Assembly (NCBI GenBank): GCA_965112155.1
Contig: OZ218099.1
Source of the DNA: Podarcis liolepis
Taxonomy: Eukaryota
DNA length: 64,000 nucleotides
Reading direction: 5' to 3' (one strand)
Position numbers and translations under genes: made by a program. This document shows positions 11,808 to 62,711 of the stretch, in pieces; the stretch's first letter is position 1, and each line of letters opens with the position of its first letter. Below the pieces are notes generated by a model that was not told the DNA's origin, made no database searches, and saw nothing but the letters and a program-made list of their open reading frames with translations.

Positions 11808-12175
11808 AGGGACGCGGGTGGCGCTGTGGGTTAAACCACAGAGCCTAGGACTTGCCGATCAGAAGGTCAGCATTTCGAATCCCTGCGACAGAGTGATCTC
11901 CCGTTGCTCAGTTCCTGCTCCTGCCAACCTAGCAGTTCGAAAGCATGTCAAAGTGCAAGTAGATAAATAGGTACTGCTCTGGCGGGAAGGTAAACGGCGT
12001 TTCCGTGTGCTGCTCTGGTTCACCAGAAGCGGCTTAGTCATGATGGCCACATGACCCGGAAGCAGTCTGCGGACAAACGCCGGCTCCCTCAATCTATAGA
12101 GCGAGATGAGCACACAACCCCAGAGTCGGTCACGACTGGACCTAATGGTCAGGGGTCCCTTTAACTTAACCTTTA
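11808..12175 (+). mobile_element. Sauria SINE (Squam1), full length
   Basis: GGGACGCGGGTGGCGCTGTGGG head, ACCTTT-type tail, TSD (TA)CTAGAAACATTA at 11794-11807 and 12174-12187. Confidence 0.92.
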
Positions 12176-14777: not shown

Positions 14778-14974
14778 NNNNNNNNNNNNNNNNNNNNNNN
14801 NNNNNNNNNNNNNNNNNNNNNNNNNNNNNNNNNNNNNNNNNNNNNNNNNNNNNNNNNNNNNNNNNNNNNNNNNNNNNNNNNNNNNNNNNNNNNNNNNNNN
14901 NNNNNNNNNNNNNNNNNNNNNNNNNNNNNNNNNNNNNNNNNNNNNNNNNNNNNNNNNNNNNNNNNNNNNNNNNN
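14778..14974. other. Assembly gap (run of N)
   Basis: 197 N bases. Confidence 1.
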
Positions 14975-42592: not shown

Positions 42593-42995
42593 TGTCATGG
42601 ACTGGCTGGGTGCAGAGGAGGGGGGGGACCAGCTGGAGAACTCCTTAGGGAACTCCCAGGGGAGGAAGTCTCAGAGCTAGGGGATAGTTGGTGGGATGAT
42701 GATGATGATGATGAATGGTCAGAGGGAGAAGGAGCAGACTGGGAGAATGAAGTGTCAGAAGCAGAAGAGGTGGCAGGGTTTAGTGAACAGGAAGAGGCTG
42801 TGACAGAGAGCAGCTCAGACTCTGAGGCTGAAGCGGAGGCTGGAGGAGAGGGTGGCCAAGAGGCAGAGTGGAGATAGGCTGCTGAAGAATCCAAGGAGTC
42901 TCCCCCTCCTGCTGTGACCAGCTCCCCTCCCCCCTGGTCTCCTAGAACATGCTGAGAAATGAAACTGGCAGAGCAGAGGGTTGTTGGAAGATGCA
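42593..42995 (+). mobile_element. Truncated LTR-like repeat related to 24137
   Basis: TGTCATGGACTGG...GAGGAG start; purine-rich body with an acidic translation. Confidence 0.45.
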
Positions 42996-44612: not shown

Positions 44613-45025
44613 TGTTATGTACTAAGCTTGGATCCTAGAACAATAGGCAAGTGGGATCCTAGAATGCAACGACTGATTGGCTTGCAGGAAAAGACCAATC
44701 AGACTCCAGGAGGAAGTTAATCAGCCTATTAGGCTGGTAGAATCGTAGAATGCAACAACTGATTGGTCTGCAGGAAAAGACCAATCAGGCTCCAGAGGAC
44801 GTTAATCAGCCTATTAGGCTGGTAGGATGGTAGACTGCAACAACTGATTGGCCTGCAGGAAAAGACCAATCAGGCTCCAGGAGGGAAGTAGAATCAGCCA
44901 ATCAGACGGGACTCATTGTGTAAATAATGTACATAAAAGCCTGAGATTTGGGGGGCAATTCAATCACTGTTTTACAAGCTGCAATAAAGAGCATGAAATC
45001 ACTACAGGACTCTGAGTATATTTCT
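44613..45025 (+). mobile_element. Solo LTR with triplicated ~85-bp CCAAT-box repeat
   Basis: Starts TGTTATGTAC; TATA-like ACATAAAA and AATAAA; GGATG TSD at 44608-44612 and 45026-45030. Confidence 0.8.
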
Positions 45026-47732: not shown

Positions 47733-48176
47733 GTCAGGAGCTCATCTTACACTCGAGTAGGACCCTGGCAGAGACACATGACCGACTGGCATGTTCTCTC
47801 CCTCCTGGTCGATCGTTCGGGAGCTTCAAAAATTTTCTTCAGCCGGAACATCACAGCAACTGATGCCAACCAACACTGGCACACTTAGGGATCCTCAGAG
47901 TCTGCGCAGTTCGCGTGACAGACCTCAGCAACTCAGCATTTTGGCTAATCTACTTTATTTGCATATAAACACAGAGAGAGCACAGCAACATGGCTCCCTC
48001 TCTCTCTAGCATCAGACAGCAAAGAGAACAAACAAAGGACAATAGTCCCACTTCACGGAACACAGTAACACAAACATCCTGTCTCCGTCACTTCCCACTT
48101 TGTGGAGTCAAAACATATACCGTCATGTGATAGACAAAAATCCCATGACTGCAATTATGGAGCAGGAATTCTAACA
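47733..48176 (-). mobile_element. Solo LTR nested in the RTE fragment
   Basis: Minus strand starts TGTTAGAATT; AATAAA near 47955; GTCA duplicated at 47733-47736 and 48177-48180; RTE reading frame rejoins across it. Confidence 0.7.
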
Positions 48177-48681
48177 GTCACATGCTTGAAGCGGTAGATG
48201 ATTTTGTTTACCTGGGCTCCACCATAGCCAGCAACCTTTCCACCAATGCTGAGCTGGACAAGCATATTGGCAAGACAGCTACAGCAATGGCTCACCTCTC
48301 CAAAAGGGTATGGGAGAATGTGATGCTAGCCAAGATGAATACCAAGACCAAGATGAAGGTTTACCAGTCCTGCATGTTGAGCACACCTCTTTATGGAAGT
48401 GAGTTGTGGGTAACTTACAATCACCACCAGCAATGCCTCAATGTCTTCCACATGCACAGCTTCAGGAATATTTTGAGCAACACATGGCATAACAGAGTCT
48501 CAGGCAAAGATGCACTCTCCCAAACCCACATTCCCAGCATGCACACACTCCTGTCTCAGCAACCCATACGCTGGCTTGATCATGCCCACAGAATGGAAGA
48601 TGGCAGGATCCCCAAGGACGTGTTCTATGGGGAGCTGGCTTCAGGCACCAGGCCCATTCGCAGACCAACTCTGCATTGCAA

Positions 48682-49035
48682 GGTAAAGGTAAAGGGACCC
48701 CTGACCATTAGGTCCAGTCGTGGCCGACTCTGGGGTTGCGGCGCTCATCTCGCTTTATTGGCCAAGGGAGCCAGCGTACAGCTTCCGGGTCATGTGGCCA
48801 GCATGACTAAGCTGCTTCTGGCGAACCAGAGCAGCGCATGGAAACGCCGTTTACCTTCCCGCCGGAGTGGTACCTATTTATCTACTTGCACTTTGACATG
48901 CTTTTGAACTGCTAGGTTGGCAGGAGCAGGGACTGAACAGCGGGAGCTTACCCCGTCGCAGGGATTCGAACCACCGACCTTCTGATCAGCAAGTCCTAGG
49001 CTCTGTGGTTTAACCCACAGCACCACCCGCATCCC
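48682..49035 (-). mobile_element. Sauria SINE (Squam1), full length, inserted in an RTE LINE
   Basis: Reverse complement of the 11808 family; TSD TCTGCATTGCAA at 48670-48681 and 49037-49048. Confidence 0.92.
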
Positions 49036-54900: not shown

Positions 54901-55050
54901 TTTTGTTTCTGCTTGGCTCTGCTTTGTGTGGCCTGTTTGATTCGCATTCGAGACCACTCTTCTCCCTTGTCTCTGTAGGCCACTCTTGGGCACCTGTTGA
55001 AACCAGAAATGAAAAGGAGGCACAAAACCAATTTGAAGTCCTATTCACTG

Positions 55051-55764
55051 TGAAAGGGACTTCAGAAATACCGACCAGGAATGTAAAAATCAGGCAGCAA
55101 AGTTTCTTAAAGAAAAAGTTTTTTTTATTTGGATTTTTTGTCCGACAAAAAGCAAATAGGGTGCATTCAGGAAAATGAAGAATGCCCACCCCTCCTTGGG
55201 GGTAGCTAACTCATATACCTTCTTGCAAAGCATAGTTCAGCCCCTTGGCATCCCTTTAGCCAATGATTGACAATTTCCTATGGTCATTGATGCATATTCA
55301 TTAAAGCTCAACCAATGAATAAATTGGTGTGTCCTTTTCGGTTCCAAGTTGCCTATTCCACTAGGTGGCGCTACTGGCTTATAATCTACTTAACCTCTGT
55401 ACTACTTCCAGGAAGTACCCCTGACCACATGCTTCCTAGAAATGTGCCGAAGCGAGTCGTGTGGTTTAGCACCTGGAGCCTGGCGGTCAGCAAACATCCT
55501 GCTACTTGCCTTTGTCAGGGGTCGTTTCTCAGAAATGGCTTAACCTCAGGTGCAAGCTACCCTAACCGCATCCTTGCAAGCTAGCTGCCTCTACAGAAGG
55601 TGCAAAGTGGTAAACAGGAGAAAGAGAAATAGTCTTTAGCTTGCTAAAATGACTTTATGCTTTTAGCTTCTAGTTTGCTCTCAAAATGGTGTCAGAGGTT
55701 CTTAAATGGCTTTAGAGGTCCTTAGCCTGGCTCTCCATTGGTCATCCTGACCTTCACCCCTCCA
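55051..55764 (-). repeat. 3' LTR of the ERV
   Basis: Preceded on the minus strand by the PPT; AATAAA at 55124-55129 (minus); the ORF track gives the same 89-aa translation in both LTRs. Confidence 0.96.
55358..55373 (+). promoter_or_regulatory. CTCF core motif in the 3' LTR
   Basis: CCACTAGGTGGCGCTA fits the CCASYAGRKGGCRS consensus. Confidence 0.6.
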
Positions 55765-55777
55765 TTCCCCCCTTTCC
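55765..55777 (-). promoter_or_regulatory. Polypurine tract
   Basis: Minus strand GGAAAGGGGGGAA directly before the TG of the 3' LTR. Confidence 0.92.
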
Positions 55778-55779
55778 AT

Positions 55780-56091
55780 CACGAAAATGCTGACCGGCAC
55801 GGTTCTCCATTTTCGCTTGATGGACCTATAGGTACAATATCATAGAGAGCCAGGAAATGTACACTCCTGTGGATACACTGGCCTTCCTCTATGACCCTGT
55901 CAAGTCTTCAAATATGGTGCTGGGGAACCACGTAGGTGGTATTCAGAATCTTGACCTCGCACGCATACCCAGCACTCAGACCTGTTCAGGCTCTTGGCCA
56001 CAGCCGTGGTCATGTTCAGGAAGGTGTTCTCCCTCCACCCGGTGGCCATCTGAGAGGTGAGAACCATCAGGAGGCAGGGTATGATCCACAT
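55780..56091 (-). pseudogene. env: Env stub: signal peptide and SU N-terminus with CWVC; remainder largely deleted
   Basis: MWIIPCLLMVLTSQMATGWRENTFLNMTTAVAKSLNRSECWVC: hydrophobic leader, N-glycosylation sequons, gamma-type CxxC (55963-55974); only ~190 nt remain before the PPT. Confidence 0.82.
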
Positions 56092-56600
56092 CCTGATTCG
56101 AGGGATGTTCGGTGCCCCAGAACAAAGAACTGTACCACCAACACAGAAATACCACAAAAAGGGTACTACCACAGGCCAAAGGGATGGTGGCCCACGAAGG
56201 CCAGGTCATGTGGGCCTCTAACTCCTGGCCCTACTGAGGCGTGAACAGCGTCTACACACAAAACGTTCCCACTCTACACAGGGAAAAGTGGCCTTCTGGG
56301 ACTGATACACTGTTAGGCCTCGGGAGCTATAGGGATGACAATAGACTCTGTAAAGTTCAAAGGCTGGTCCTACTGGGTAGCGGTCACCTACGTGGTCTCT
56401 GACCAGGGTCTATGGAGGCTGAAGCCTGGGGTGGCAACCCTTATGCAGCCACAAGAATACCCTACCACATTCAAGGGTATTATGTGTGGAGTTACCAGGC
56501 CCAGTAGTTCAGGCAGTATTCTGGGATTTTTTGGGAGGCTCGAGCCACCACGACAACCACAGGTGGGGCTGCAGGATTTACTGGCACTTGTTCAGCAATT

Positions 56601-57023
56601 TCAATGCGCACCTGGTTCAGGCTCCCTCCCCTGCAATATTTGCATTAAGATAGGCTCCGTCCCATGCAACACCTGGATTAAGATTAGGACCTGGTCTACC
56701 AGATGGGGTTGGTACAGTGCTCTACCCCCTGAGTGACAGTTGGTTACCCCCCCACAACAGCAAGAGCGGTCCAGAACTCGATAGATTTCAACCGTCTCTG
56801 CAACTTCCCGTAGGAGCAGTACCCATGTGCGCTGGACAGTGGTGTGGAAGAGAAGCCACAGTGGGGTAGTGGGATGTTTCAATACGGCAACCTCATCAAA
56901 GCCCTGTTCCCAATAACCAATGAGAACGCCGTTTCTTACCACTGGCAAGACGAACCAGTCGTAGCAGAGGTCCGCAGGCCAATAGGGTCGGTATGGCTCG
57001 GTGGGGTCAGGGCAATAGGACAT
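56601..57023 (-). CDS. Putative 140-aa accessory ORF between pol and env, function unknown
   Basis: Open frame from ATG 57023 (MSYCPDPTEPYRPYWPADLCYDWFVLPVVRNG...YRVLDRSCCCGGVTNC...) within a ~1-kb pol-env interval. Confidence 0.45.
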   Translation of the reverse strand: MSYCPDPTEPYRPYWPADLCYDWFVLPVVRNGVLIGYWEQGFDEVAVLKHPTTPLWLLFHTTVQRTWVLLLREVAETVEIYRVLDRSCCCGGVTNCHSGGRALYQPHLVDQVLILIQVLHGTEPILMQILQGREPEPGAH

Positions 57024-57088
57024 AGAGCAAATCAATACAGAACATAATAGAGAAAAGGGGAAAGTCCTTGTGAAAGTCCTTGTGATGA

Positions 57089-58345
57089 TCAGTCGCAGGA
57101 TCTCGTTGCCCGTGGCCCCAACGCACTCCCGGTGGCGTCGGACGCAGGGGTGATGATCAGACGCGTGTGATGCACCCAGGGAATCACGTCGGCTACTCTC
57201 ACCGCAGTTGGGATGGAGAGGAGGACGGTATACGGGCCTCGCCACTTAGGGATGAGGGGGTTGCGCTTCCACGCTGTCACCCGGCTGGAACTGGTGGACC
57301 GGCTCAGCGAGACTGCACGGTGTAGGCTCGAGGTAGTACCTGGAAAGGGAAGCAAACACACACGGGGACAGGAATTGCACTTGTTCCTGAGTGATGTGAT
57401 CTCCCACCCGCCCCAAACTGGCGGGGATGTCTCGGACGAAAGGGGTGGCCTGCCATACAAAAGTTCAAAGGGTGATAGTCTCAGTCTCTTGGTTGGAGCG
57501 CTCCGAATCCGAAACAAGGCAATGGGCAGGACATCTATCCAGTGTAGTCCCGACTCCTGGGTCAGCTTGGCCAAGTGGGTCTTCAAGGTGCGATTCATAC
57601 ACTCAGGTTTTCCCGAACTCTGGGGTCTGTAGGCTGCGTGTAGCCTTCAGTTTATCTGCACCGCCTTGCACACTTCTTGCACAACTTTATCAATGAAGGC
57701 AGGGCCACTGTCACTGCCAATACTTCTGGGGAGGCCACTGTCCAACCCGTCAGGGTGCAGACAAACACAAGCAGGTATTTGATGCCCCTAACTGGAGGTA
57801 GTTCAGTGAAGTCCACAATCAGGCTTTCCATAGGGGTGAAGCCCACGTGTTGTACGCCCGGTGGAGGGAGGTGGCCTTGTCTGGGGGTGTTCTTGGCGCA
57901 CAGGACACACTTTTGTGAGATAGCAGCAATTAGTTGGGATAGGTTGGGGATGTAGAGTATTCTCCCAAGGTGTGCTTTAGCAGCTGGGCTTCCTATGTGA
58001 GTAGACTCGTGGTAGTTCTTTACAATCACGCTGGCTAGATGCTGGGGCACAAAAACACGGTTGTCTGGTAGATGGAACCATCCCTCCTGGAGTGTTGCAC
58101 CTTCCTGGCGTGCCCACTGTTGCTCCTCCGGTGTGTAGTGTGGTTCCACATCGTCTGGAGTGAGTTGTGGGATGAGGGCTGCGTTGAGTGCTGGTGGAGG
58201 TTTCAAAGCTGCTTCACGAGCTGCGTTGTCTGCCTTCCGGTTGCCCCTAGTGACCATGTCCCGGCCTCTCCGATGGCCTTTGCAGTGCATCACGGCAATC
58301 TCTTCGGGACCCCATACTGCTTCCAGTAACGTCTCAACTTCTGGA
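57089..58345 (-). pseudogene. pol: Pol remnant: RNase H C-terminus and integrase (deletion, frameshift, stop)
   Basis: AVMHCKGH...GNRKADNAAREAA; HESTH...CVLC zinc finger; IVDFTE, YLLVFVCTLTGW, SDSGPAF, YRPQSSG..E.MNRTLK, SPFELLYGRPP, PKWRGPYTVLL..PTAVRV...PWVHHTRL. Confidence 0.95.
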
Positions 58346-58905
58346 CATTAGCCTTGCATCCAGTTGCCAATTGCAGGGCAATGCCTTTTGCTGTTGGACT
58401 TCGCCTCAGAGCACAAACAACTCTTGGAGACTTTGGCTTTCTTAGACCTCTTGGAACGGCTTGCCTGGCTTGCACCCCCACTTCTGGGTGCTCTGCTGCC
58501 TGAGGAACAACTTGTAACTGCCTTCCTCTTCAGCCCACAGTCCATCACACAGATTTATTGAAGCGTAGAAACAGCTTCCCAAAACAGCCTCAGCCCCCTC
58601 TGGGCTTGGTACTTTTTCTGGGCATCCTCTAGCCCCCTCTGGGCTTTCTGGGCGTCCCACAGCCCCTTCTGGGCTTCCAGCCCCCTCTGGTCTGGCTGCC
58701 ACTGTGGCCTGACATGCTGTCTTCAGTGGCTGCCACGCTACCCAGGGCTTCCTCCCTTGGAGTATTGGCAACAGCCAAGAATCAAGGCTGGTCCTTAAAA
58801 TGGCTAGGACCCTTTGGTCTCTCTAGACCATCAGGCACGTCTGCTTCACAAGCTTCCACTGCGCCTGCAGACTTCTCAATGGGTTGGGCAAAGCCTGTTT
58901 CAGTC
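58345..58905 (-). other. Second non-viral insert replacing most of RNase H
   Basis: No Pol motifs between MEYKG(YTD) and EVETLLEAVWGPEEIAVMHCKGH; four copies of AGCCCC(C/T)TCTGG (58592-58692); low-complexity PEGA-repeat and K/R/S-rich translations. Confidence 0.65.
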
Positions 58906-58909
58906 TGTG

Positions 58910-59191
58910 TACCCCTTATATTCCATAAGGGTGAGAACCGAATGGGGCACATTCACATGCATCTCCTGGCCAAACATGAACTTGTCTGCTTCTTCCACTA
59001 GTGTGGCGGTGGCAGTGACAGGCCACAGACAGGGTGGCCAGCCTTTCACTGTGGAATCTAATTGTTTGATAGTCTCAAAGGCTTCTTGTTGGGCCGGTCC
59101 CCACTCAAAGGGGTCTCTTTCCCTTCCTCTGGTACTCTCATTTAGAGGTTTTGCTAAAATACTGAGGCCCGGGATCAGGATTCTGCAAAGG
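58910..59191 (-). pseudogene. pol: Pol remnant: RT C-terminus / connection domain with an internal deletion
   Basis: CRILIPGLSILAKPLNE...FEWGPAQQEAFETIK | QLDSTVKGWPPCL...LVEEADKFMFGQ...VPHSV, typical of gamma-type RT thumb/connection. Confidence 0.9.
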
Positions 59192-60260
59192 CTGCTGCTC
59201 CACAACTTTAAGCTTGTCTTTTAGGGATATCACAATCTCTGCCTTTTATTGCAGTGACCTTTTGACAATTTATAGATGGTCAGTATGTTCAGCAAGTTGT
59301 CTGGATAAATTAGCTAAATCTTCATCCCTTCTTTTGCATTTTGTAAAGTGAGCTGGTTGTGTGAATCTTTCACTGATTTCAGCTCGTTCACAAAACTTTG
59401 TTCTCTGTTTTTCTTTTAATTTTAGTAACTTGTTCAATTTCTCCTTTGCAGAGATATGTTCATCGACCTGGGATTTAAGATGGTCTGTTCCTCCTTACAT
59501 TCTATTTCTGTTTCTTGCAATTTTTTAGTTGATATACTTATTTGTTCTTTAAGCAATTTAATTTGTGAGTCACACTCCATGAGTTTGTTGTTGTAAGTAA
59601 CATCACAAGTATTGATTGCAGAATGAAGATCTTTAACTGTTTGGCTAGTCTCTTTGATTTGCCTAACAAATTCTTCATTCTCTTTTGTTTTACTAGCGTT
59701 TTCAATTTTTTTTTTCCTCAGCCAGTTCTGATTTTATTGCATTTAACTGCTCAGAAAGTTCTGAAAGCTTTCTGCCTCCACTGTTCACACCTTTGGTTTG
59801 TACATCTTTCAGCAACTGGACTTCCCTTTCAGCCTTAGACAACACTATTTCCCTGTCTTGCATTTCATCCTCTTTGCACTTGATCTGACATTTCAGAATA
59901 TTAATCTGCTCAGAATACACATTTGTATTTGAAATAATAGCAGAAATTTCTTTGTCTTTCTCAGCTAAAACCTCTCTGAGGTTGTCAAATTCTCTTCCAT
60001 GCCTCTGGAGGTCTTGAATTAGTTGAGACCTCTCTTCTAAATGACTTGTGTTTAATCTATTAAGTCCTTCATTTGTCTGTTCAAGATCCTGTTACATTAA
60101 TTCTATAATAGCATCCTATTTCATGGTCTTTTCTCAAAAGTTTATTTATTTTTTCCTCTGTTAATGCAGTAATAACTGCTTACTGTTCTGTACACTCTTC
60201 TCCATAAACACTGCACTTCTTCTGGACATCTTCCCTCTCCAAAACCTGACATGAGGGAGT
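59192..60260 (-). pseudogene. Non-viral, decayed coiled-coil coding segment inside the ERV (golgin/GOLGB1-like, probably captured host sequence)
   Basis: E/K/Q/L-rich heptad-like translation across stops and frameshifts: QDLEQTNEGLNRLNTSHLEERSQLIQDLQRHGREFDNLREVLAEKDKEISAIISNTNVYSEQINILKCQIKCKEDEMQ...KENEEFVRQIKE...YNNKLMECDSQIKLLKEQIS...DEDLANLSRQLAEH...SLKDKLKVVEQQ; no retroviral motif; visibly AT-richer than the flanking viral DNA. The GOLGB1 identity is from recall only. Confidence 0.75.
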
Positions 60261-60469
60261 GACTTTGCAATGTTCAGTCCTGCATTTCTTCAACCAGGGG
60301 GGGGGGTCTCTATTACCACATTCAGCCAGTAGTCTATATAGGGAATCTGGTCAGAATGTCCCCCCTGGTCTATGCCATAGTCTCCACTGAATCCTTTCTT
60401 GAAGTTGTTTAACATGCATTGAAGGGGGATTACTGGACCTTTCAAGCCTTTCGAGCCTCCCCCTCCCAT
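60260..60469 (-). pseudogene. gag: Gag matrix remnant (internally deleted, frameshift in a C10 run)
   Basis: MGGGGSK (myristoylation-type start) ...PLQCMLNNFKKGFSGDYG ... GHSDQIPYIDYW ... PPP/WLKKC; gammaretroviral MA motifs (GHPDQVPYIxxW, PPPW). Confidence 0.88.
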
Positions 60470-61019
60470 TTTCAGTATGACCCTGTACAGCGTCCCCACA
60501 CCAAACACTCACACATTCATTTCGCAAGGAATACTTATTACTACGACCCCAGGGGAATGCCCTGGGTTAACACACATACATGCACAAAATGCCTCTCTCG
60601 CCAGACGTTGTACCATACACTAACCACCCTGTGCCCCCCTTTCTCTCCTTCCTAATACCAAAACGTGGGTGGTTGTCAGGGGTCAACCCTTCTCCTTAAT
60701 GCCACTATCCACGCTGGAGATGTGATCAGGATCTCCCTTCTCCTTAATTAAAAGGAGGATTTACTATGTCCTCAGGGCTTGTTGCCATGTACTCACCCCA
60801 GCCGGCTGTTCTCTGCCCTGTCCTCCCAACCTCGGGTCTTCAAATCCGTTGTCCTCTGTCCCAGGATACAGCAAGAGGGTCAAGTTGCCTTCTGTCCCCC
60901 TCCGAAGAAAAGGTTCGGTGTGCACCTGGAAGCCAGGAAGTCCGTTGGCCCTCCGCTGTCACTGCCCAGAGGGCAAGGGAGCTGCCTCCTGGTCTCTGAG
61001 GACACTTAAAGTCCTTCTG

Positions 61020-61041
61020 ATCCGAGTCACTTTTGGCACCA
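61020..61041 (-). promoter_or_regulatory. Primer-binding site, tRNA-His type with an AAAA insertion
   Basis: Minus strand TGGTGCC-AAAA-GTGACTCGGAT, 4 nt after the 5' LTR; the canonical His PBS is TGGTGCCGTGACTCGGAT. Confidence 0.85.
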
Positions 61042-61045
61042 GAAA

Positions 61046-61759
61046 TGAAAGGGACTTCAGAAATACCGACCAGGAATGTAAAAATCAGGCAGCAAAGTTT
61101 CTTAAAGAAAAAGTTTTTTTTATTTGGATTTTTTGTCCGACAAAAAGCAAATAGGGTGCATTCAGGAAAATGAAGAATGCCCACCCCTCCTTGGGGGTAG
61201 CTAACTCATATACCTTCTTGCAAAGCATAGTTCAGCCCCTTGGCATCCCTTTAGCCAATGATTGACAATTTCCTATGGTCATTGATGCATATTCATTAAA
61301 GCTCAACCAATGAATAAATTGGTGTGTCCTTTTCGGTTCCAAGTTGCCTATTCCACTAGGTGGCGCTACTGGCTTATAATCTACTTAACCTCTGTACTAC
61401 TTCCAGGAAGTACCCCTGACCACATGCTTCCTAGAAATGTGCCGAAGCGAGTCGTGTGGTTTAGCACCTGGAGCCTGGCGGTCAGCAAACATCCTGCTAC
61501 TTGCCTTTGTCAGGGGTCGTTTCTCAGAAATGGCTTAACCTCAGGTGCAAGCTACCCTAACCGCATCCTTGCAAGCTAGCTGCCTCTACAGAAGGTGCAA
61601 AGTGGTAAACAGGAGAAAGAGAAATAGTCTTTAGCTTGCTAAAATGACTTTATGCTTTTAGCTTCTAGTTTGCTCTCAAAATGGTGTCAGAGGTTCTTAA
61701 ATGGCTTTAGAGGTCCTTAGCCTGGCTCTCCATTGGTCATCCTGACCTTCACCCCTCCA
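61046..61759 (-). repeat. 5' LTR of the ERV
   Basis: Minus strand starts TGGAGGGG and ends ...CCCTTTCA, followed by the PBS; matches 55051-55764 at an offset of 5995. Confidence 0.96.
61353..61368 (+). promoter_or_regulatory. CTCF core motif in the 5' LTR
   Basis: Identical CCACTAGGTGGCGCTA. Confidence 0.6.
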
Positions 61760-62711
61760 ACTGCATTGTTTGGCTGAGGCCTGGGTGAAATGATCATGCC
61801 CCGTAGGCAAAGGGAAAGATTCACTGCATTTATACCCCTCCAAAGGAGCCATCTAAGCATGGTGTACATTGTGAAATATGTGGTGTTTATACTGAACTGG
61901 GCTTAATGGTGGCTAATGAAGGCTGTTAGCTTTCAGTTTCATAGACACAAGATGGAACCTACATCCTAGGTTTGTTAGTTATCCCCTTGGTTCCCAAGCA
62001 GGGGGTGGAGGGGGATCCTCATTCCTGGGTCTGGAAAGCTGTCATCCAAAAGCCTGGTCTACCTAATAGGGTTGTTGTTGAACTAAAGTTGCTCATAGGG
62101 AAGATGGAATACTGATATCTTAAATAAATGGCAGTTCCTTTTGGGGAAAGATGAATAAATGCAACCGCAGGCCCAGTATCTGATTATAATTGCCATGTTT
62201 ACTTCCCTTGCATCCCACTAAATCTCCTGCTGGAGATTCTATGTCAGACAATATGGAGGTGATGTTATGGCATCAGAAAGTATGAAAAGGCTTCAGAAGA
62301 CTCTTTGGCTTCTTTCCCTTGGACTGCTTTGAAATAACTAAAAGCTTCTGGAACAAAAGTGCAATTTGGGGGAGATTATGGGCATTTGCCTGTCCAAGCC
62401 TTCATTAACAAACCTTATTACAGGCATTTCTCTCCATGTCGGCTTTCATCTTCCACACGCTAATTTTTTTTTCCCCTCTTTCACATGGAGAACAATCTTC
62501 TCTGCTGAAAATGTGATGTTAGATTTGGAAGAATGGGAAGTGCTAGCCGGTATTGGCTGGTATATCAAGCCAACGGAGACCGGTATTGGGATCTAGGAAT
62601 GCATTAAAGACTTCACCACTGGCTCCACTCTTCAAGAGATCATAGCCCAGCTTCTTGATGGGTTTTTACTTTAAGTCAACCAATCAAAAAGCTGTTTCAC
62701 CTTCCCTACTT

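Follow-up and report, generated by a model that had tools for sequence, protein, structure and literature searches.

Non-autonomous retroviral elements and captured host genes

Long terminal repeat (LTR) elements can carry host gene sequences between their termini, and the available text of Tan et al. 2016 (PMC5131818) describes such LTR-mediated retrocopies, including maize Bs1 and human HERV-K/FAM8A1. A second group of relevant systems comprises the non-autonomous endogenous retroviruses (ERVs) mouse VL30, a class I element co-packaged with murine leukemia virus (MLV), IAP 1delta1, and ETn-MusD, as described in the available parts of PMC6466679. Here we describe a provirus at 55047..61763 in a 64,000-nucleotide stretch of Podarcis liolepis DNA (assembly GCA_965112155.1, contig OZ218099.1; the whole stretch is called the window below). 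Very probably, it is a young member of a lizard ERV family (class I, non-autonomous) that is itself old and multi-copy, carries a decayed golgin fragment, and is copied in trans.

The lizard element resembles the LTR-mediated retrocopies, as far as these are covered in the available text (PMC5131818), in that partial host coding sequence stands in place of internal open reading frames (ORFs) between LTRs, and also in its more than one foreign segment, its further rounds of copying, and, as judged by eye, a short sequence shared at one junction. It differs in scale and preservation: secondary copies are few in that text (one to five for Bs1), whereas sequencing depth suggests tens here, and the cargo is heavily decayed, unlike that of the retrocopies. 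The species screen in the same text includes no reptile, with zero occurrences of "lizard". With VL30, IAP 1delta1, and ETn-MusD, the element shares LTRs and cis signals around an interior that has lost gag-pol sequence, and the mouse elements are polymorphic and prolific in the parts of PMC6466679 available. Mobilization in trans is shown for those elements in the same parts, whereas for the lizard element we infer it. The hosts also belong to different classes, and only the lizard element has a recognizable host gene fragment and a candidate accessory gene (ORF A, below). The likeness is functional and not one of descent.

Boundaries, cis signals, and age of the provirus

The provirus lies on the minus strand, with the primer-binding site (PBS) after the right-hand LTR and a polypurine tract (PPT) before the left-hand LTR. 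The target-site duplication (TSD), LTRs, and cis signals are located as follows.

55047..55050, no strand: TSD, left copy, 4 bp
55051..55764, minus strand: 3' LTR, 714 bp, same sequence as 61046-61759; its minus strand holds a single TATA-like motif and a single AATAAA
55765..55777, minus strand: PPT, 13 purines directly adjoining the 3' LTR, assigned from sequence
60470..61019, minus strand: leader with presumed packaging signal, assigned by position and motif scan, with splice-donor-like sites
61020..61041, minus strand: tRNA-His-type PBS with four extra bases inside, 4 nt from the LTR
61046..61759, minus strand: 5' LTR, 714 bp
61760..61763, no strand: TSD, right copy; flank contigs of two related organisms (runs X1 and X2, below) begin to align exactly at 61760

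A preliminary description of this DNA reported LTRs that matched wherever they had been compared, and full alignment now gives identity at 714 of 714 bases, with TG...CA termini and no extension of the repeat on either side. The perfect 4-bp TSD, the element coordinates, and the empty-site string given in that description are all correct; the chance probability of the four bases matching at both ends is 0.4%. The cis signals it listed as retained (PBS, leader, and PPT) were all located, with the PBS interrupted and the leader function presumed. Compared with an 18-nt HERV-H PBS primer in the available text of PMC3253121, the PBS matches over 7 and 11 bases with the four extra bases between them, and a tRNA-His probe in the available text of PMC5435960 has the same 11 bases. 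By its position, the region following the PBS may function in packaging.

If LTRs are taken to change at 1-3 substitutions per 1e9 sites annually, which is our own assumption, the lack of any difference sets a 95% upper limit of 0.7-2.1 million years on the age. Identical LTR pairs may be hundreds of thousands of years old, according to the parts of PMC10435555 available, where invading ERVs (ERVi) are recognized by identical LTRs, intact genes, and insertional polymorphism within the host species; the present provirus has the first and lacks the second, and its site appears empty in two related organisms (below). Within the window, the LTR pair is the sole repeated part of the element, and no second copy of any other part was found. 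A scan against Rfam gave three matches, all far under the gathering score.

A mosaic interior with a captured golgin fragment

The interior between the leader and the 3' LTR consists of retroviral remnants, assigned by reference to related proteins such as the lizard Pol P0009 and to solved structures, together with two foreign inserts. Remnants of reverse transcriptase (RT), integrase (IN), and other viral genes are given here, and two small ORFs between IN and env are treated separately below.

60261..60469, minus strand: matrix-like start of gag, opening with Met-Gly; a frameshift falls within its roughly 70 codons, and similarity to P0014 residues 3-32 is weak (E 0.004)
59190..60235, minus strand: insert 1, GOLGB1-like golgin coding fragment in sense orientation, about 1.05 kb, upper edge between 60233 and about 60260
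58912..59189, minus strand: RT thumb/connection remnant, P0009 residues 407-553 with a 49-residue internal deletion; matches MLV RT structures
58348..58911, no strand: insert 2, about 560 bp, repetitive in related genomes, replacing 168 Pol residues
57727..58347, minus strand: RNase H (C-terminal half), followed by the zinc-binding domain of IN and the beginning of its core, P0009 residues 722-927 at 69%; Pfam matches, and RNase H structures of MLV and xenotropic murine leukemia virus-related virus (XMRV)
57089..57736, minus strand: IN core and C-terminal domain (MLVIN_C), P0009 residues 949-1145 at 60%, with frameshifts and one stop in the aligned frame
55900..56091, minus strand: probable env remnant, 63 codons with the remainder absent, hydrophobic signal-like start and CxxC motif

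Relative to the 1172-aa P0009, the element retains residues 407-460, 510-553, 722-927, and 949-1145, or 501 of 1172 (43%). Within this span, 49 residues are lost from the RT thumb/connection and 21 from the IN core, and 168 are replaced by insert 2, whereas residues 1-406, comprising the protease and the RT polymerase domain with catalytic motifs at residues 3 and 325, are gone entirely. Capsid and nucleocapsid are absent as well, with only two short pieces matching the Gag of P0014. The deletions reported in the preliminary description for the RT connection, IN, and env were thus found (the env frame ends at 63 codons), but the largest loss, that of the protease and RT polymerase domain, had been understated. 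As read from its remaining frames, the element cannot encode its own capsid, protease, or RT and is unable to replicate alone.

The solved structures matched by the Pol remnants are the RT and RNase H of MLV and XMRV, the IN end is an MLV-type domain, and the closest named Pol relatives come from wall lizards (69%) and Anolis (51%). These matches, together with the TG...CA LTRs, the 4-bp TSD, the tRNA PBS, and the PPT, identify the provirus by sequence as a class I, gamma-like ERV. The 63-codon frame is labeled probable env on the basis of position, hydrophobic start, and CxxC motif, and it has no Pfam or PDB match.

Insert 1 is A-rich and encodes a coiled-coil protein. Of 794 candidates, five matched, three under the name golgin subfamily B member 1 or a -like form of it, and identity is 64% to a snake protein and 59% to chicken golgin subfamily B member 1. 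The similarity is collinear over about 340 residues (854-1190 in the snake protein and 926-1269 in the chicken protein) and reads in the sense of the provirus, through at least five stops and four frame changes. Together with the stop and frameshifts in IN and the frameshift in gag, these lesions bear out the many stops and frameshifts noted earlier. The fragment occupies the place of gag-pro-RT instead of interrupting viral sequence. At its 3' edge, the golgin/pol junction, about 10 bases can be assigned to either side, closing the golgin codons and opening the match to the RT thumb. This overlap, judged by eye from the element's own letters and its protein matches, would be expected for a template switch and follows the pattern given for such captures in PMC5131818; capture of the golgin sequence by that route may be proposed from the junction.

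Insert 2 is of a different nature. In run X13, its two central bins have a depth about 33-43 times that of the flank, compared with 2-5 times for the golgin bins, and its copies vary by 48-bp units, so the insert is no single-copy piece of the host genome. Either it belongs to another repeat, or it was captured earlier and is common to a wider family. None of its six frames has a Pfam match, one frame compared with longer proteins gave no match among 890 candidates, another gave a single, unusable match at 0.75 in the Atlas, and no match to five golgin proteins was found. A likeness to P0018 (33 residues, E 4e-4) was dropped after a profile gave a domain E of about 1. The insert also holds a 30-bp tandem repeat at 58615-58682, where copies in three DNA runs differ by 48-bp deletions. 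Of the two foreign inserts announced in the preliminary description, both are present, yet each replaces viral sequence and neither interrupts it; likewise, the description of the cargo as host-derived holds for the golgin fragment only.

Sister copies and an apparently empty site in related organisms

Among the 24 sequencing runs listed, 20 contain part of the window and 15 contain 0.36-0.63 of its words (eight organisms). Four runs were aligned over 55765-62700: X1, X2, and X13, which are DNA, and X23, which is RNA. The comparison draws on the 24 contig pieces listed out of 1296. Because depth added up over contigs does not give a copy number, single contigs were compared, and the more divergent contigs listed were left out as related families.

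In X1, four flank bins have a depth of 11.3-11.4, whereas all 26 element bins reach at least 620; in X2, the flank is at about 32 and all 26 element bins are at least 814; and in X13, the flank is at 14-18 and the element bins are at least 32. Single interior contigs exceed flank depth by 51-65 times in X1 (four contigs, 0.3-2.4% differences), 15-26 times in X2 (three contigs), and about 2 times in X13 (two contigs). The LTR contigs of X1 have a depth of 1484-1582, about 2-2.7 times that of its interior contigs, as for proviruses with two LTRs. The golgin/pol junction is spanned by X2 record 19 (233 nt, six differences, 15 times flank depth), table rows at 59191 and 58904 suggest bridged junctions also in X1 and X13, and the gag/golgin edge is covered by 25-50 bases in X1 record 6. 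Other copies sharing the internal lesions, proposed earlier as a test of prior damage, were therefore found in two related organisms, by depth and by the golgin/pol junction contig.

The insertion site itself appears to be empty in the organisms of X1 and X2, judging by their right-flank contigs. Their single-copy flank contigs begin to align exactly at 61760, beyond which they have 501 and 234 further non-LTR letters, respectively. Flank divergence from the window is 16 of 941 positions (1.7%) in X1 and 8 of 941 (0.85%) in X2, which is similar to the divergence of main-family contigs and so fits a mosaic older than the lineage split that was then amplified separately. A multi-copy mosaic in relatives, a bridged golgin/pol junction, and flank contigs that cross the insertion point without an LTR together indicate that the damage predates this insertion, as the preliminary description had proposed.

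Two further observations concern the LTRs of these copies. In X2, a joint at 55765/61756 marks a high-depth form with a slightly altered LTR end beside the PPT, and LTR indels are not the same across runs, which suggests lineage-specific subfamilies.

A related lizard family with open Pol frames

The family of P0009 (UniRef A0A670ILY5, named from Podarcis muralis) includes 1172-aa Pol frames in 6 of its 15 cluster members. This family and its Anolis relative resemble the present element in their gamma-like Pol and MLV-type IN C-terminal domain, with 60-69% protein identity in the RNase H-integrase parts, but they have full-length Pol frames and have diverged too far for a direct parent. By eye, loose ends in X1 (58913, 58323, and 58273), in X13, and in the RNA run X23 (7 and 8 reads) lead into Pol of the P0009 type at precisely the points where this element departs or carries insert 2. 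A related ERV family with open Pol thus exists in lizards and is transcribed in one of the organisms sampled. In X23, 157 reads aligned, nearly all in the sense of the provirus, with 2 at 99% identity or more and 131 only partly aligned, which shows that they derive from relatives or from the host golgin gene and not from this locus.

ORF A and its paralogue

Two small ORFs between the IN and env remnants belong to a protein family without a name.

56601..57023, minus strand: ORF A, candidate accessory gene, uninterrupted, 140 aa, between IN and env
56218..56373, minus strand: C-terminal remnant of ORF B, an ORF A paralogue, matching P0021 residues 80-130 at 78%

The earlier view of the interior as wrecked and mosaic is accurate for the protease and the RT core, which are absent, and for gag, most of which is lost, but not throughout, as the 140-aa ORF at 57023-56601 is open. 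Its homologues number four among 1.84 billion proteins, all unnamed Logan sequences, with identities of 81% over 140 aa, 64%, 79% over 48 residues, and 37%. The most distant of them, P0021, matches ORF A at 36% over its residues 5-89 and the ORF B remnant at 78% over its last 51 residues; as it matches both places, the parent virus would have had two tandem paralogous ORFs, of which B is left as a tail only. This tandem paralogous pair recalls vpx/vpr.

ORF A has no Pfam match, no PDB sequence match, and no usable Atlas match, and none of 40 pattern matches in viral contigs was confirmed. A metagenome scan gave 11 weak matches (38% over 56 residues) that were treated as unrelated. A structural model built from four sequences (predicted local distance difference test, pLDDT, 60.6) has a helix, a five-stranded meander, and two helices; its best fold match, to p32/MAM33-like proteins (Z 6.5 over 89 residues at 3.3 A), comes from a low-confidence model and is within the range of common arrangements. 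The model had no Foldseek match at E <= 0.001 in BFVD or PDB, which does not show a new fold.

In the parent virus, ORF A might, as a guess, have encoded an accessory factor, expressed by splicing, that targeted a step of host restriction or of export, by its position and by analogy with the accessory genes in the available text of PMC5512871. Retroviruses with accessory genes likewise have small ORFs between pol and env, but the sequence and fold searches above gave no match between ORF A and known accessory proteins, and the backbone differs in being gamma-like here, a type described as simple in the available parts of an anamniote survey.

Origin of the family and alternative explanations

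The ancestral provirus may have gained its golgin sequence when RT switched template onto a co-packaged host RNA, replacing gag-pro-RT, with insert 2 arriving by a separate and probably earlier swap. The chimera would have retained the LTRs, PBS, leader, and PPT, and a related, coding-competent ERV could have supplied the proteins that package, reverse-transcribe, and integrate its RNA. Once the host lineages had separated, bursts of copying would have led to very different copy numbers, and the locus in the window would be one recent product of them. Amplification to different levels in different lineages, in trans, is the most likely course of events, and the preliminary proposal of a defective RNA copied in trans in the manner of VL30 or ETn is supported by the multi-copy mosaic in relatives, the loss of the element's own enzymes, and the identical LTRs and TSD.

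Several points weigh against this account. The multi-copy evidence comes from related organisms and not from the window's own genome, contig depth is a rough proxy for copy number, and 24 of 1296 pieces were listed, none of which spans the whole element; three of the four junctions are bridged marginally or by indirect table rows. The empty site is deduced from the right flank, namely from where its contigs begin to align and from the length by which they continue beyond that point. Protein identity to the open-Pol family is only 69%, so that family is not the direct parent, transcription of this element's own family was not seen in X23 (2 of 157 reads at 99% identity or more), and the interrupted PBS may weaken priming.

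Among the alternatives, ORF A may have been kept under selection, its protein helping the element to spread or helping the host, so that the family would amount to a one-gene vector. A precedent for such a role is IAP 1delta1, whose remnant protein aids its own movement according to the available text of PMC6466679. No viral frame other than ORF A remains open over its full length, and its protein family is real, with a tandem paralogue at 36-37% that gives no self-match at the DNA level. High-depth contigs over ORF A also have fewer differences (1 of 356 in X1 and 1 of 331 in X2) than main-family contigs elsewhere (30 of 1622 and 9 of 455; Fisher p 0.03 and 0.05). However, the contigs compared were few and selected by length, other high-depth contigs are deleted inside ORF A (joints 56614-56703, 56793-56906, and 56817-56964), the homologue P0020, found on 15 contigs, is broken, and a 423-bp frame can stay open by chance, which leaves selection on ORF A a rather doubtful prospect.

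Two other explanations dispute the recent copying itself. An old provirus could show identical LTRs through gene conversion or through assembly polishing with multi-mapping reads, and a multi-copy family is a setting in which polishing can homogenize repeats; the window assembly is gapped, with 197 N at 14778-14974. This explanation is nonetheless improbable, as the site is apparently empty in two organisms with flanks differing by 0.85% and 1.7%, the TSD is perfect, and sister copies share the interior regardless of LTR identity. It is more improbable still that the decay of the interior took place at this site and that multiplication then went through DNA, in a tandem array or by segmental duplication, and not through RNA. 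In favor of such a route, no dispersed flanks of sister copies were seen directly among the pieces listed, but the flank stays at single-copy depth as far as the TSD, the LTR-to-interior depth ratio is about 2 or more and not 1, and identical LTRs around an interior that had decayed on the spot would require conversion.

Sequence surrounding the provirus

Elsewhere in the window, 150 of 155 flanking ORFs of at least 75 aa were scanned with no Pfam match, and the element may still lie in an intron. A 252-aa frame at 48149-48907 (plus strand) has no Pfam match at 0.001 and resembles, by eye, the end of a long interspersed nuclear element (LINE) reverse transcriptase; it is broken by a dispersed repeat that occurs at 11809-12173 as well. 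A purine-rich segment at 42595-42960 (plus strand) reads as an acidic peptide broken by stops, has no Pfam match, and is probably a repeat, and an 85-bp unit occurs in three tandem copies at 44624-44879. The whole window contains many short dispersed or inverted repeats (families D4, D6, D9-D16, and I1-I3) typical of short interspersed nuclear elements (SINEs) and small DNA transposons.

Implications for retroviral evolution in squamates

The mechanism is already known, and what is new is the reptile host, the apparent scale at which a host fragment has been amplified, the differences among lineages, and the unnamed ORF pair. In the mostly open-access literature searched, by titles and the starts of abstracts, there was no description of this family, of a golgin-bearing ERV, or of ORF A. 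The family would be missed by screens that demand an intact RT, such as that in the parts of PMC10435555 available.

ORF A and its paralogue represent a retroviral protein family without a name, Pfam model, or clear fold, although backbones of this type are generally regarded as simple. The provirus adds squamates to the animals in which retroviruses capture host gene fragments and copy them in bulk, with apparently tens of copies and a copy number that differs about 30-fold between close relatives. Recent insertions such as this one would be usable for marking lineages, and they point to activity of ERVs in these lizards at some time in about the past 1-2 million years.

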